A stretch of DNA of 64,000 bases from an uncultured Alphaproteobacteria bacterium (GCA_934277435.1 CAKQUE010000001.1:781-64780), one strand, 5' to 3'; numbered from the stretch's first letter, positions 18,342 through 22,562 are shown. Notes: generated from the sequence alone by a model not told the origin. Program-made: numbers and translations.

Positions 18342-21300
18342 CTATAACAGCGACGGGATATCGTCATCGGTTGAAGTTTCAATTTGTTGAATTTCCGCCG
18401 GACCTTGGCCTTGTTGCATACGTTGCTGCTGTTCAGACCTCAATTGTTGCTGACGGCGCGCTGCTCCGCTGTTGCTGTTCTTTTTAGAACTTGATGACCG
18501 ATTGCCGCCGGTCGGACGAATATTTTCATCATAATCATCATTAGTTGAAACAGAACCTGAATTTGAACCTAGGCTAGGATTTCTCATTGTCAAACCTCCT
18601 GACTTATCAAAATCTCCGTTACCTGATTTATTTTTCTTGGCTCTATCTGGATTGTTCAGCCACAAATCAACCTTAGGAAAGATGATAATACGCGTACCGG
18701 CAGGAACATAGGTAACAGCTTGAATATTTGCCTTTTTCTGGACAATTTCCTTGAAAATATCATCCATTTGATCCAAAAAGTTTTGGCGAGCGTCGCTGGC
18801 TGCTTGGCTTTTTGACGAGGTCGTAGAATAACCATTCCCCTCACTTGTTCCATCTCCTGAGGCCATAAGATATGCAGTGGCGCTTTCCATAGCTGTAATC
18901 AACATCGGCGCTGTATATTTTTTCAACAGTTGTTCATCCAAATATCCAATAGCACCGGCTCTACCTTGAGCATCAGCAGTTTGTGAACCGTTTATAGTAA
19001 ATTGAGAACCATCAGGACGGATTAATCTTCTCCATGATATATCAATTTTAACAGCTCCACCGCTATTGCCACCACTGCTGCCGGAGTTTTCTCCGCTGAT
19101 TTCGCCTATAACCCTAGAACCTGCTGGAATAACAATGTTACGTCCTTCTTCGGCATAAACATTACGTTCGACAACCGCCGTTACTGGTATTCCGGAGCCT
19201 AGGCCATCAGAAGCATAAACTGAACGCGACAAAACTGCCGGAATTGGTTTGTCTTCCAAAATCATTTGGCTCATATCAACCCTCCAGCTTGAAACAGTTT
19301 TGCCAACATCCGGCCAGCCATCTTCTTCATAACCGGTAAAAGTTGACGGAGAAACATTTGAGCTTATTGAACCCACTGCCATTCCAGAACGACGGGTTGC
19401 TTGCAAATTTGCCAACGCTGCCGCTTTGCTCGGATCATAGCGTTCGCCGGCTCCATAGCCACCTCCTGGTCCGAGTGACGACGGCTTATTGCCAATGCCA
19501 TAAGCGTTACCACTGCCAAATGTTCCTGCCGGTACAAACATATTTTGCGCCGATGAACCTTTTATTTCTTCCACCCCTATCGGATTATATTTCATATCAA
19601 CAATCATACCATCTGGTGTTCTAAAACCTATCTGATTGTTGTTATCATCATAAACCTTATTATCATCATATATACTGCCCAAAATATCACCGTCCGGATT
19701 TAAGGCAATACCTATAATACGGCGATTGAACTGCCCTCCTGATGATTGCTGAGATGGTTGAATTTCATCATTTTTTAGTGGTCCTTCCTCTTGAATCTGT
19801 ACTTTTTTATAATCAGCCCAATCCTGTTTGGTATCTGTTTTTTTATTGTTTGTCGCAATATAATACTGTAATGTATATGCCTTAGCCAGTTCATCTCCAC
19901 TCGTGTTGCGGATTACACCGGCGTCAGATAAGTATCCTATATTTTGATTATCATAATCCAACACATTACCATCTATCTGCAGTTCACCCACAACATTATT
20001 GCTTGCATCACGCACAGTATAATCTCTGTTTCCGCGAGCCACAACCTGTCCTGTCTTATCAACAACAAAACCACGGTCCATTTTACCAATACGACTACCT
20101 GATGTATTCAATACTGTACCATCCTTCATAATATAGCCATATACAATAAAGTTTCCATCATACACATAAAAATCATAGAGAGCGAAACCCACTGTTTCTC
20201 CCTTATGCTGAATACTACCGTCAAAATTTATTTGCCCAACGTTTTCGCCCTTTGTATTCCATACTTGCCCGTTGTTTTGAACCATACCTAAAAAAGTATT
20301 ATCATTGCTAAATGCGACTTTATAACGCATCACGTTACCAATAACTTTTTTAGATTTTGAAATCACATTTCCATTTGGCTGCATTGCGCCCAATATTTGA
20401 TTATTATTATCGGCAACAGAACCATTTTCCATAACCTGTCCAATAATATTATTATCAAAATCAATCGCCGGAGCAGGAGTTATGACGCCATATTTCCATT
20501 TATTATCACTATCAATGACTATTCCCTGACGGTTAACACAACCCAGATTTTTATTTGCATTGTCAATTCCCTTGCCAGCATTGACAACACCGATGTAATT
20601 GCCATCAAAATCAATCAATCCGCTTTCAAAAATAGAATAACCTATGTATGAACCGACATCGGAAACAGCTTGACCGTTAGGCAGCAGGCGTCCAACAGCA
20701 ACATCACGATTATTTATAATTTCACCGCGTCCGTTTAAAATACCAAGCTGAACGCATTTGTCATTATTGACGCCAACAAACGGCACTAATTTACCGGTTA
20801 CTGAATTATTATTATCGCTTACAAAATTGCCATACAAAGCCCGACCATAAATATTGCCGTCTAAATCTGTAATTTTTCCGTTGTTCCCCGCATAGCCAAG
20901 CAAATCACCATTTGTGCCAACCGCAACCATACGAGAACCGGCAAAACCGCGCAAAGGCATAATATTTTCGCCAATATTTCCTTTGGTTTCAACAACATTA
21001 TAGCCTGGAGTAACCTTATAAGCAATTTCTCCTTTATCGTCTAAAAGCAAATTATTTGCAGCCAAACGTCCTAAAGACTGTCCCTTAAAACTCAGAGCAT
21101 AACGCACATCCAACTGACTTCCAATATAACCAGATTTTCCGGTTAATGAACCATTCATATTCATTTTAACATCTGACATTTCTCTATAAAGAGTTCCGTT
21201 TGGAGTAAGATACGAATAAACTTGCCCTTCTAAACCTAATATAGGGGTAAGGTAACGACTTCGACCGTCCAATTTGTTTTCGGCTGATAACAAATAGCCA

Positions 21301-22562
21301 AACGGTGATACTTTTTTCTTTTCCGAGCCATCTGGAATAGTTGCATTTATTTCGGCGACACCAAATGGCTTATTGTTACCGTTTATAGCTATGGTATTTT
21401 GCACTAAACCGCCGGCAAGCATTCCATTACCGTCAAAAGCCCAATTTTTTTTCATGCGGCCAATGTTGCTACCCTTCAAAGAAATATACGCACCATTACC
21501 CATGGATTGACCAATTAAATTTCCCAATGCATTAAACACCGGTCCGGTTGGGGTTATGAGGCCTATCTGTTGATTGTCTTTATTATAAACATCAGCGCCG
21601 GCACCAACATAGCCGATAATTTCAGTTCCTTTAGCAATAACGCCTTTTGGCAACACTCTGCCGATATAGTGCCCTTCATTGTCATTGGCAGTGGCTGACA
21701 TCGGTATAGAAAAACCTATAACCTCGTTGTCACTATTGACAATATTGCCGTCAGCGCGGTAAAAACCAACTTTATCAATTCCACTTACCACCACACCGTT
21801 ATATGTGATAATTCCCATATAACGTCCGTTTAAGTCAAAAGCATAACCAGTGCGAACAACACGGCCTATCACTTTGTTTTCTGAATCATAAACATATTCA
21901 TTGGCATGCACTGAGCCAATTTCTTTACCTTCAAAATTTATAACTTTTCCAGAAGGAGCAATACTACCGATAAATTCTCCGCTCAACGAAACCACCATTT
22001 TAGAAGACATCAATCTACCGTCTAAAATATATTCATCGCCCGATTTTCGATATGCATAGCCGTTGGCCGAAACGAAGCCAATTTCTGCACCATCCAAATT
22101 TGTATAGGTTCCAGCTCCGGTTAGACGGCCGATTGTACTTCCATCTGCAGAATAAATCAGCCCTGGAAATAAAATTGAACCGATAACATTATATTGCTCA
22201 TCAACAACCAAACCGTTTGGTAAAGCACGACCTAAAGGTTTACCGGTCGAACTTCTTACAACACCGTCGCTATTGATTTTTCCTAAAGGACGGTTATCTG
22301 TGCCGATTGCCACACCTTGTGGAACAACTCCGCCTATAACTTCATTGTCCTCATTCAGAATCAAACTATCGGCGGTAATATATCCTATATTGGCTCCATC
22401 AGGACTGATAACCATACCATTTGATATAACTTGCCCAATTACTTCGCCGTTAAAATCCACGGCGGTAATTTCTGCAGCATTTACCACTTGGTTAAACGCC
22501 AAAAAAGTTCCTAATGAAAGGATTATAGTTTGCAGATATTTTACGATTCCGCTGTGTTTCAT
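18342..22562 (-). CDS. Giant CagY-like T4SS protein: signal peptide + ~1000-aa decapeptide tandem-repeat region + C-terminal VirB10/TrbI barrel domain + low-complexity Q-rich tail
   Basis: C-terminal ~250 aa (…TAVVERNVYAEEGRNIVIPAGSRVIGEISG…IDISWRRLIRPDGSQF…AGAIGYLDEQL…) matches VirB10/TrbI domain; the repeat region is made of D-x-N-G-x-I-I-G-x-V decapeptide units; start ATG overlaps stop of upstream ORF (TAATG). Confidence 0.7.
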   Translation of the reverse strand: MKHSGIVKYLQTIILSLGTFLAFNQVVNAAEITAVDFNGEVIGQVISNGMVISPDGANIGYITADSLILNEDNEVIGGVVPQGVAIGTDNRPLGKINSDGVVRSSTGKPLGRALPNGLVVDEQYNVIGSILFPGLIYSADGSTIGRLTGAGTYTNLDGAEIGFVSANGYAYRKSGDEYILDGRLMSSKMVVSLSGEFIGSIAPSGKVINFEGKEIGSVHANEYVYDSENKVIGRVVRTGYAFDLNGRYMGIITYNGVVVSGIDKVGFYRADGNIVNSDNEVIGFSIPMSATANDNEGHYIGRVLPKGVIAKGTEIIGYVGAGADVYNKDNQQIGLITPTGPVFNALGNLIGQSMGNGAYISLKGSNIGRMKKNWAFDGNGMLAGGLVQNTIAINGNNKPFGVAEINATIPDGSEKKKVSPFGYLLSAENKLDGRSRYLTPILGLEGQVYSYLTPNGTLYREMSDVKMNMNGSLTGKSGYIGSQLDVRYALSFKGQSLGRLAANNLLLDDKGEIAYKVTPGYNVVETKGNIGENIMPLRGFAGSRMVAVGTNGDLLGYAGNNGKITDLDGNIYGRALYGNFVSDNNNSVTGKLVPFVGVNNDKCVQLGILNGRGEIINNRDVAVGRLLPNGQAVSDVGSYIGYSIFESGLIDFDGNYIGVVNAGKGIDNANKNLGCVNRQGIVIDSDNKWKYGVITPAPAIDFDNNIIGQVMENGSVADNNNQILGAMQPNGNVISKSKKVIGNVMRYKVAFSNDNTFLGMVQNNGQVWNTKGENVGQINFDGSIQHKGETVGFALYDFYVYDGNFIVYGYIMKDGTVLNTSGSRIGKMDRGFVVDKTGQVVARGNRDYTVRDASNNVVGELQIDGNVLDYDNQNIGYLSDAGVIRNTSGDELAKAYTLQYYIATNNKKTDTKQDWADYKKVQIQEEGPLKNDEIQPSQQSSGGQFNRRIIGIALNPDGDILGSIYDDNKVYDDNNNQIGFRTPDGMIVDMKYNPIGVEEIKGSSAQNMFVPAGTFGSGNAYGIGNKPSSLGPGGGYGAGERYDPSKAAALANLQATRRSGMAVGSISSNVSPSTFTGYEEDGWPDVGKTVSSWRVDMSQMILEDKPIPAVLSRSVYASDGLGSGIPVTAVVERNVYAEEGRNIVIPAGSRVIGEISGENSGSSGGNSGGAVKIDISWRRLIRPDGSQFTINGSQTADAQGRAGAIGYLDEQLLKKYTAPMLITAMESATAYLMASGDGTSEGNGYSTTSSKSQAASDARQNFLDQMDDIFKEIVQKKANIQAVTYVPAGTRIIIFPKVDLWLNNPDRAKKNKSGNGDFDKSGGLTMRNPSLGSNSGSVSTNDDYDENIRPTGGNRSSSSKKNSNSGAARRQQQLRSEQQQRMQQGQGPAEIQQIETSTDDDIPSLL

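Follow-up and report, generated by a model that had tools for sequence, protein, structure and literature searches.

VirB10 is regarded as the one subunit of type IV secretion systems (T4SSs) that spans both membranes as a single chain, and it is thought to act in the manner of TonB, relaying conformational changes that ATP drives at the inner-membrane ATPases to the gate in the outer membrane. The canonical members, including A. tumefaciens VirB10, TraF of pKM101, TrwE of R388 and X. citri VirB10, are chains of ~400 residues in which a tail, a transmembrane helix, a Pro-rich spacer and a barrel with its antenna follow each other, and their genes occupy the slot between virB9 and virB11. Here, we describe the virB10 slot of a T4SS gene cluster from an uncultured Alphaproteobacterium, contained in a stretch of 64,000 nucleotides (GCA_934277435.1, CAKQUE010000001.1:781-64780; hereafter the window, with positions counted from its first nucleotide). 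The slot is filled by two adjacent genes, and their products are referred to as B10N and B10C throughout this paper. B10C, the barrel-bearing protein, is probably the C-terminal, outer-membrane half of a giant VirB10 that underwent gene fission, with the two halves re-associating in the periplasm.

Among the enlarged relatives, CagY of H. pylori is a giant VirB10 ortholog with a large repeat region before its barrel. CagY's middle repeat region is built from alpha-helical A/B motifs (PMC3585145) and corresponds at the DNA level to extensive direct repeats, which undergo in-frame recombination in the course of infection and differ between strains (PMC2194252, PMC3585145, PMC5954226). DotG (IcmE) of Legionella, a single chain of a type IVB system, comprises an N-terminal membrane segment, a long beta-type region of variable, recombining pentapeptide repeats and a C-terminal TrbI domain, and was proposed to be the central channel linking the inner- and outer-membrane complexes (PMC6761968). 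The beta-flower proteins (PF21784 and PF21785, clan CL0395) were described as small single domains of ~96 residues, for which no solved structure with the same global fold was reported (Durairaj et al. 2023, PMC10584680).

Taken together, B10N and B10C show the same order of tail, transmembrane helix, spacer and barrel as canonical VirB10, but they comprise 2673 residues in two chains, with ~2000 residues of beta-hairpin repeats in place of the Pro-rich spacer, a signal peptide on the barrel-bearing chain and an extra disordered C-terminal tail of 100 residues. The barrels of B10C and CagY are structurally similar, whereas CagY is one chain and the repeats of B10C, on a chain that is split, are beta-hairpins, degenerate at the DNA level, fixed in number and conserved position by position; B10C is not a CagY homolog beyond the barrel. 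By analogy of layout, DotG appears to be a nearer functional counterpart than CagY, although here the repeats are 17-residue hairpins, the gene set is VirB-type (IVA) and the chain is split. With the beta-flower proteins the repeats share [DNEQ]xxG hairpin tips and profile scores well above the gathering thresholds; unlike those described so far, they make up, with ~50 hairpins, a single body that is predicted with confidence and joined to the barrel of a secretion channel. In the limited library of literature that was searched, no report was found of a split VirB10, a beta-flower VirB10, a beta-flower or DUF3659 protein in a T4SS, or a relevant T4SS of gut Alphaproteobacteria. Of interest here are the natural fission, as proposed, of an envelope-spanning subunit and a very large, confidently predicted all-beta array without a solved counterpart.

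The Barrel-Bearing Protein B10C

The region 18342-22562(-) was listed as one unbroken open reading frame (ORF) of 1406 residues, the layout of which is given in Table 1. The identical protein was found on six contigs from independent samples, the four fetched contigs translated to it exactly, and the same architecture is common to more than 100 homolog clusters. An assembly artefact joining two genes, which the initial annotation of this ORF had itself named as grounds for refutation, is thereby ruled out.

The C-terminal domain can be assigned to VirB10 with certainty. The Pfam TrbI profile (PF03743) matched residues 1101-1302 (E = 4.8e-30; 105.3 bits against a cut-off of 35; profile positions 2-188 of 188), and the NCBIfam VirB10 and ComB10 models matched with E-values of 1e-27 to 1e-29, the T4SS_VirB10 model (E = 2.6e-27) reaching 95.7 bits against a cut-off of 220, which is below the equivalog level, and the ComB10 model 102.8 bits against 300. 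By these profile scores, B10C is a divergent member of the VirB10 family, placed at the domain level only. A phmmer search of the last 407 residues against the PDB sequences returned ComB10 (3.6e-17), TrwE, CagY, X. citri VirB10 and TraF. In the AlphaFold2 (AF2) model of residues 1000-1406, the barrel was predicted with a per-residue confidence (pLDDT) of 70-85 together with two long helices, the antenna of Table 1. The top 24 Foldseek matches of this model in the PDB were all VirB10 C-terminal domains, among them TrwE (6e-11), CagY (9e-11), X. citri VirB10, TraF, ComB10 and the DotG dome (9ngw); for the canonical VirB10/TrbI/TraF proteins the E-values ran from 6e-11 to 3e-9 and the target TM-scores from 0.6 to 0.68. 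The model thus predicts a barrel and two-helix antenna as in the solved VirB10 C-terminal domains, and the gene lies between virB9 and virB11 in a VirB-type cluster. The initial annotation had recognized this domain correctly but had placed it in the last ~250 residues, while the barrel stops ~100 residues short of the C-terminus.

Those ~100 residues form the tail rich in Q, S and N that had also been recorded initially; by composition it is rich in S, N, G and Q, and the AF2 confidence falls below a pLDDT of 50. Its identity between orthologs is 19-37%, and the last seven residues are 57-86% identical in the closer orthologs. A fast-evolving disordered tail after the barrel was also observed in other giant VirB10s, both split and fused (P0161-P0179, P0255, P0282), with ends such as ..VPQLF, ..PELF and ..PRLF (DDIPSLL here) and a terminal residue that is usually aromatic. 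Possible roles for this conserved tail-end motif are those of a docking peptide or of an element resembling a beta-signal.

At the N-terminus, B10C reads MKHSGIVKYLQTIILSLGTFLAFNQVVNA followed by AEITAVDFNG, with a short basic n-region, a weakly hydrophobic h-region and small residues at positions -3 and -1. A cut-site pattern (AxA, VxA, SxA or GxA) precedes the conserved (A)EITA(I/V)DFNG in 107 of the 119 homologs, the h-region varies, and the signal-peptide region as a whole is 17-55% identical between orthologs. This N-terminus has a hydrophobicity (KD19) below 1.6 and the median of the family is 1.70, whereas the anchors of B10N and of the fused forms discussed below reach 2.5-3.4. From these features we infer a Sec signal peptide that is cleaved after Ala29, in agreement with the initial proposal that a signal-peptide-type N-terminus stands in place of the cytoplasmic tail and transmembrane helix. 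Anchoring of B10C as a lipoprotein was considered and rejected, as there is no Cys near the cleavage site.

The Upstream Protein B10N and the Coupling Junction

The cytoplasmic tail and the transmembrane helix are not on the barrel-bearing chain; both were found on the ORF directly upstream. B10N is laid out as a cytoplasmic tail (residues 1-18), a transmembrane helix (19-40), an Ig-like domain (~85-170) and a hairpin array (~225-1255). It starts with MSKEVLTHSDRYVRKTNR, followed by a strongly hydrophobic helix (KD19 of 3.09); Pfam Bflower_2 matched it with an E-value of 2.7e-65, and the Ig-like part gave weak matches to ASH (Pfam) and choice-of-anchor D (NCBIfam). The tail, the transmembrane helix and the C-terminus of B10N are near-invariant across species. 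What had been overlooked initially is that the membrane anchor has not been lost but is encoded by a translationally coupled upstream gene.

The two genes meet in a TAATG stop/start overlap with the arrangement GGAGG-N5-ATG for B10C. Across 11 species-level genomes this arrangement does not change, apart from TGATG in one of them, and the adjacent synonymous sites vary. The order virB8-virB9-[B10N]-[B10C]-virB11 is the same in all 11; in the window it reads virB8-virB7-virB8-virB9-[B10N]-[B10C]-virB11, so that the pair fills the virB10 slot.

The length of B10N ranges from 1211 to 1684 residues between species, with indel blocks of 52, 104, 156 and 415 residues at one site near residue 521. 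These blocks are multiples of a three-hairpin unit, the hot spot corresponds to ~24500-25540 in the window, and Tandem Repeats Finder detected a 51-nt array at 24873-25081 within the gene. Within the family, then, changes in copy number fall in B10N and not in B10C. B10N is identical in the four contigs that carry the identical B10C.

Single-Chain Relatives and Gene Fission

The C-terminal 407 residues of B10C were searched with HMMER against 1.8 billion representatives. The search returned the split family, ordinary VirB10s of ~400-630 residues, and 17 clusters of giant proteins of 1498-2406 residues. In the 17 giant clusters the barrel is C-terminal, and the N-terminus, such as M..LSSSEQYVKKSNRxLLLxGI, can be aligned to that of B10N (MSKEVLTHSDRYVRKTNRIILIVGI); a further example, MNEDLLSSSDKYLKKSNRTLLLVGIFAFLAFFVGL, aligns with B10N from residue 1. 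BLASTP of the non-repeat first 215 residues of B10N against the first 260 residues of the giants gave E-values of 1e-31 to 1e-8, the alignments beginning at residue 1. The fused giants carry Bflower_2 and TrbI (Pfam) and a single strong transmembrane segment, which is N-terminal, and they are collinear with the concatenate of B10N and B10C across the junction. One of them, P0255 (2201 residues), is encoded between virB9 and virB11 in locus L016, and its cluster has 141 members, the 15 listed being all of 2201-2202 residues.

These single-chain giants are the closest true relatives of the pair. They share with it the module of tail, transmembrane helix and Ig-like domain, the repeat families and the slot, and their barrels are 40-50% identical to that of B10C. 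They differ in being one polypeptide with one transmembrane helix and no internal signal peptide, and they have been annotated only as 'TrbI/VirB10 family protein'. In a neighbour-joining tree of the barrel, the split forms make up one clade nested among the fused giants, and the ordinary VirB10s lie outside. The pair is therefore best read as a fissioned giant VirB10, because the sister lineages have one chain in the same slot, of which the first 210 residues match B10N (E = 1e-31) and the C-terminal end is the barrel. The two-gene layout in 11 genomes, the invariant junction, the signal-peptide pattern and the single nested clade indicate that the fission is old and functional.

The course of events may be proposed as follows. 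The ancestral VirB10 would have consisted of a cytoplasmic tail, a transmembrane helix, an Ig-like domain, a linker and the barrel. The linker would then have been replaced by 1-2 thousand residues of 17-residue beta-flower/YD-like hairpin repeats, giving single chains of 1.5-2.4 thousand residues. In one clade, to which the source organism belongs, the gene would subsequently have been cut within the repeat array, which would have left B10N with the ancestral tail, transmembrane helix and Ig-like domain plus ~1000 residues of repeats, while B10C would have gained a ribosome-binding site, a start codon and a Sec signal peptide for itself.

Relatives of canonical size were also recovered. One of 579 residues opens with a similar tail motif (SESFVKRSERRMLVLG) and weak similarity in the Ig-like part. 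Among P0306-P0365, proteins of ~500-630 residues with barrels 32-38% identical, many start with lipoprotein-type signal peptides (..LLAACGK.., ..LTACGKK..), and loss of the classical inner-membrane anchor may be commoner in the VirB10 family than assumed.

The Repeat Array

Autocorrelation of Gly and of hydrophobic residues along B10C peaked at 17, 34 and 51. The repeat unit is a 17-residue beta-hairpin, the register of which is visible when the sequence is set in rows of 17. The tandem repeats reported by the initial annotation are real, but not their period, since the decapeptide represents no more than the part of the unit that is conserved at its core; nor do they extend over ~1100 residues, the actual extent being ~930 (residues 30-903 and 946-1001). 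Beta-flower profiles matched with high scores, PF21785 in five stretches (E = 3e-52; 175.6 bits against 38) and PF21784 with 41.6 bits against 25, and the hairpin tips carry [DNEQ]xxG. The linker between the two repeat blocks shows high variable-column counts and a 3-residue indel at position 934 in the 90% cluster of close homologs described below. The counterpart of the second block, KSLGIALTPDG, is conserved in all homologs, and the single helix of the pre-barrel segment lies at residues 45-61 of the AF2 model of residues 1000-1406.

Structure prediction of a repeat block, one of the checks suggested at the outset, was run on residues 29-600 and returned a confident all-beta model (pLDDT 91; predicted TM-score 0.90) of hairpins with 63 short beta-strands and no helix of at least four residues. 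On this model the repeat array appears to be a conserved rigid scaffold. No PDB chain, full-length CagY included, matched the repeat region by sequence, and no solved PDB structure had the same global fold as the array model. Foldseek detected local 3Di similarity to the YD strips of Rhs, Tc and teneurin proteins at a global TM-score of ~0.1. In the Pfam and NCBIfam searches B10C had no RHS match (Pfam) and B10N only weak, stretch-less ones, and there was no Pentapeptide match (Pfam) in B10C. There is no Rhs core, toxin or cocoon, and the similarity to Rhs shells is local only.

The arrays of B10N and B10C are of one repeat family, and an alignment between them extends over ~900 residues with an E-value of 4e-45. 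Duplication of a whole array between the halves was also considered; the collinear 900-residue alignment is suggestive of it, but repeat-to-repeat alignments are degenerate, and only the common repeat family was retained. Since the repeats precede the barrel, the topology of VirB10 predicts, by analogy, that they are located in the periplasm.

Constancy of the Repeats

Tandem Repeats Finder detected no tandem repeats inside 18342-22562, and in the repeat search the best internal DNA repeats of the B10C gene were short copies, 60-80% identical. In the 90% cluster (13 full-length members examined of 31), the proteins are 1405-1409 residues long and differ only by indels of 1-3 residues, those of more than one residue being confined to the linker, outside the repeats. 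Homologs remain at 1382-1425 residues down to ~45% identity. Orthologous 17-residue windows are 73-76% identical between species (~70% overall), and the best paralogous window averages 39%; therefore, each hairpin keeps its own identity, and there is no homogenization. In close orthologs the repeat region and the barrel are about equally conserved (73-77% each), while in distant orthologs the repeat region diverges faster than the barrel, and the signal peptide and the tail faster still.

In a distant clade of split VirB10s (P0161-P0179, 1500-1711 residues), one to four near-identical 47-residue repeats, GDDGYLRDANGNIIGR..GHINENGEFVGLDGKV, separate PLQYYS from KSLGIALTPDG at a single site immediately ahead of the barrel linker; this copy-number hot spot is absent from B10C.

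Alternative Explanations

The initial annotation took the ORF for a CagY-like protein, that is, for a surface-exposed repeat module that changes its copy number by intragenic recombination and so modulates the T4SS or evades immunity. A giant VirB10 with repeats and the presence of the CagY barrel among the structural matches speak for it, as do the 47-residue repeats of the distant clade and the block differences in the partner B10N between species. B10C itself behaves otherwise: its gene is without DNA tandem repeats, the internal DNA repeats being short and at most ~80% identical; its length is constant across hundreds of homolog clusters, with the small indels of the 90% cluster as the only changes there; and its orthologous units are much more similar than the paralogous ones. 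Comparison with CagY found only the barrels alike, the repeats of B10C being all-beta rather than alpha-helical and matching no PDB CagY chain by sequence, and an array N-terminal to the barrel would be periplasmic; in addition, B10N is the same in four contigs with an identical B10C. For the B10C ORF the CagY-like explanation is therefore largely refuted, and we give it only a very slight chance. Smaller again, practically nil, is the probability that one giant virB10 appears as two ORFs owing to a frameshift error or to a recent mutation that inactivated it. In favour of this, the ORFs lie side by side in different frames and have single-chain relatives, but the same boundary recurs in 11 species and in independent assemblies, conservation extends to a dedicated Shine-Dalgarno sequence, to the start codon and to the signal peptide, and both ORFs are intact with position-specific conservation between species; these conservation data refute an artefact or pseudogene.

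The remaining alternatives accept two proteins and differ in how they are joined. B10C might be a purely outer-membrane/periplasmic VirB10 and B10N an independent accessory or scaffold, comparable with DotF or the Cag-specific components, in which case VirB10's task of spanning the envelope and sensing energy would have disappeared or passed to other components. The variable length of B10N beside the fixed length of B10C suggests different constraints, and the many canonical-size relatives with lipoprotein-type N-termini suggest that the inner-membrane anchor may be dispensable in parts of the family. Strict conservation of the adjacency and of the translational-coupling junction, the near-invariant tail, transmembrane helix and C-terminus of B10N, and the same repeat type in both proteins make such a separation of the halves unlikely. 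Highly improbable, although somewhat less so than CagY-like variation, is an uncleaved signal anchor, by which the N-terminus of B10C would be a second inner-membrane anchor and B10C alone would span the envelope without a cytoplasmic tail. The uncharged N-terminal stretch of 22 residues is long enough for a membrane span and compatible with this, but its hydrophobicity is far from that of real anchors, its h-region is poorly conserved in sequence, and a polar c-region, small residues at -3 and -1 and the invariant mature start EITA(I/V)DFNG are retained.

Fission of a giant VirB10 is thus preferred, and several points besides that uncharged stretch weigh against it. The barrel tree is a simple neighbour-joining tree without support values, and the association of B10N with B10C is inferred. 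The fission point cannot be placed, as in BLAST the sequences on either side of the junction, from B10N and from B10C, match many repeat positions of the fused proteins at 25-34% identity. Among the fused relatives seen, none exceeds 2406 residues, against 2673 for the split pair; fission would therefore have been accompanied by growth or duplication of the array. Finally, there is no VirD4, relaxase or recognisable VirB6 in the window. A word-based homolog search with the N-terminal 230 residues of B10N yielded no fused proteins, its hits being confined to short fragments of this family at contig ends; the fused forms came to light through the HMMER search with the barrel.

Proposed Working of the Split VirB10

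If the two chains act as one VirB10, B10N and B10C would be translated in a coupled fashion. B10N would insert in the inner membrane with its N-terminus inside, and B10C would be exported by Sec and its signal peptide removed; Lpt genes in the window indicate a diderm envelope in the source organism. The barrel of B10C would join VirB9 and the VirB7-like lipoprotein in the outer-membrane core, where the antenna would form the pore. In the periplasm the two rigid beta-arrays may associate non-covalently and so restore the bridge from the inner to the outer membrane, and they may also build an enlarged periplasmic scaffold.

Gene Neighbourhood

Table 1. Features of the split virB10 locus and its neighbours in the window
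Feature	Coordinates	Strand	Details
B10C, probable outer-membrane half of split giant VirB10	18342..22562	-	1406 residues and stop; Pfam Bflower_2 and TrbI
Sec-type signal peptide, predicted	22476..22562	-	residues 1-29; predicted cut between VNA and AE, from sequence features
Main array, ~51 beta-hairpin repeats of 17 residues	19854..22475	-	residues 30-903
Low-complexity linker	19728..19853	-	residues 904-945; inside the more variable 900-1000 segment of the 90% cluster
Second short repeat block, 3 hairpins	19560..19727	-	residues 946-1001, RIIGIALNPDG...
Gly-rich pre-barrel segment, one helix	19293..19559	-	residues 1002-1090; invariant GPGGG.G.GERYDP in the alignment
VirB10/TrbI beta-barrel	18648..19292	-	residues 1091-1305; predicted two-helix antenna, 1210-1234 and 1250-1279
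Disordered S/N/G/Q-rich tail	18345..18647	-	residues 1306-1406; ends in conserved DDIPSLL
B10N, probable inner-membrane half of split VirB10	22562..26365	-	1267 residues; directly upstream of B10C
Coupling junction, cGGAGGaacTAATG	22560..22575	-	GGAGG in the last two Arg codons of B10N; stop/start overlap of 1 nt
VirB9 homolog, signal peptide and C-terminal SPOR	26375..28105	-	Pfam CagX/VirB9 PF03524, E = 2e-10; directly upstream of B10N
VirB11 ATPase	17358..18332	-	Pfam T2SSE, E = 6e-24; database name 'type IV secretion system protein VirB11'; directly downstream of B10C
VirB7-like lipoprotein by position (MSKKILLIMGLLLILSAC...)	28892-29080	-	small unlisted ORF between the two virB8 genes
VirB3-like protein with two transmembrane segments	~41662-41950	-	small unlisted ORF just upstream of virB4

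The source organism is an uncultured human-gut Alphaproteobacterium, the nearest relatives of which are the UMGS1578, Hadza and HGM metagenome-assembled genomes. Its T4SS is chromosomal and lies among the housekeeping genes rnpA, yidC, engB, htrA, hflKC, uvrA, lpt and hpf. The cluster comprises three VirB2 genes, a VirB3-like ORF, VirB4, five signal-peptide proteins, two VirB8, a VirB7-like lipoprotein, VirB9, the split VirB10 and VirB11. At 576 residues, the VirB9 homolog is long, and its SPOR (peptidoglycan-binding) match, with an E-value of 2.4e-4, is just above the cut-off; this domain may tether the outer core to the cell wall.

Between virB4 and virB8, where VirB5 and VirB6 are expected, five consecutive ORFs (29999-39164(-); 261, 460, 566, 411 and ~1322 residues) have signal-peptide-like N-termini, belong to no Pfam or NCBIfam family and show no polytopic transmembrane pattern. 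The start of the ORF at 29999-34117 was probably set too far upstream, with a likely Met at ~33967. A Rickettsiales rvh-type system, considered for the multiple VirB2 and VirB8 copies, was rejected on the signal peptides and lack of polytopic transmembrane segments of these five large ORFs at the VirB6 position.

A type IVb pilus cluster adjoins the T4SS (45560-53733(+)), with TcpQ, a secretin, a PilO-type accessory protein, a T2SSE ATPase and a T2SSF platform protein, and a separate PilT-like ATPase is encoded at 54501-55466(-). Elsewhere in the window, a tandem duplication (1154-1453 and 2409-2708; spacing of 1255 nt, 97% identity over 300 nt) contains two copies of a PtsN-like EIIA-2 of the phosphotransferase system (PTS).

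Significance

A lineage that conserves a cut in VirB10, the outer half being exported by means of a separate signal peptide, amounts to a natural experiment on the need for a covalent link in this subunit, and it bears on how the two ends might communicate without one. The arrays of 1-2 thousand residues of beta-flower/YD-like repeats represent a third, independent enlargement of VirB10, beside those of CagY, by helical repeats, and of DotG, by pentapeptide repeats, and they give the recently named beta-flower repeat its first concrete cellular context. For annotation, the 'hypothetical protein' encoded upstream of B10C should be recognised as the N-terminal half of VirB10.

It is conceivable, and we put it forward tentatively as more doubtful than the fission itself, that so ancient a split means that covalent continuity from the inner to the outer membrane is dispensable, with the array interface acting as a non-covalent, possibly regulatable 'clutch', unequal copy numbers of the halves and an all-beta periplasmic cage. 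If so, the clutch would sit between the inner-membrane energising complex and the outer-membrane pore, and differing copy numbers of the two halves would help to reconcile the outer core with the inner complex, whose symmetries are known not to match. Around the channel, the arrays would then form an all-beta cage of very large size and of a kind not seen before, in a common group of human-gut bacteria that is prevalent but uncultured.

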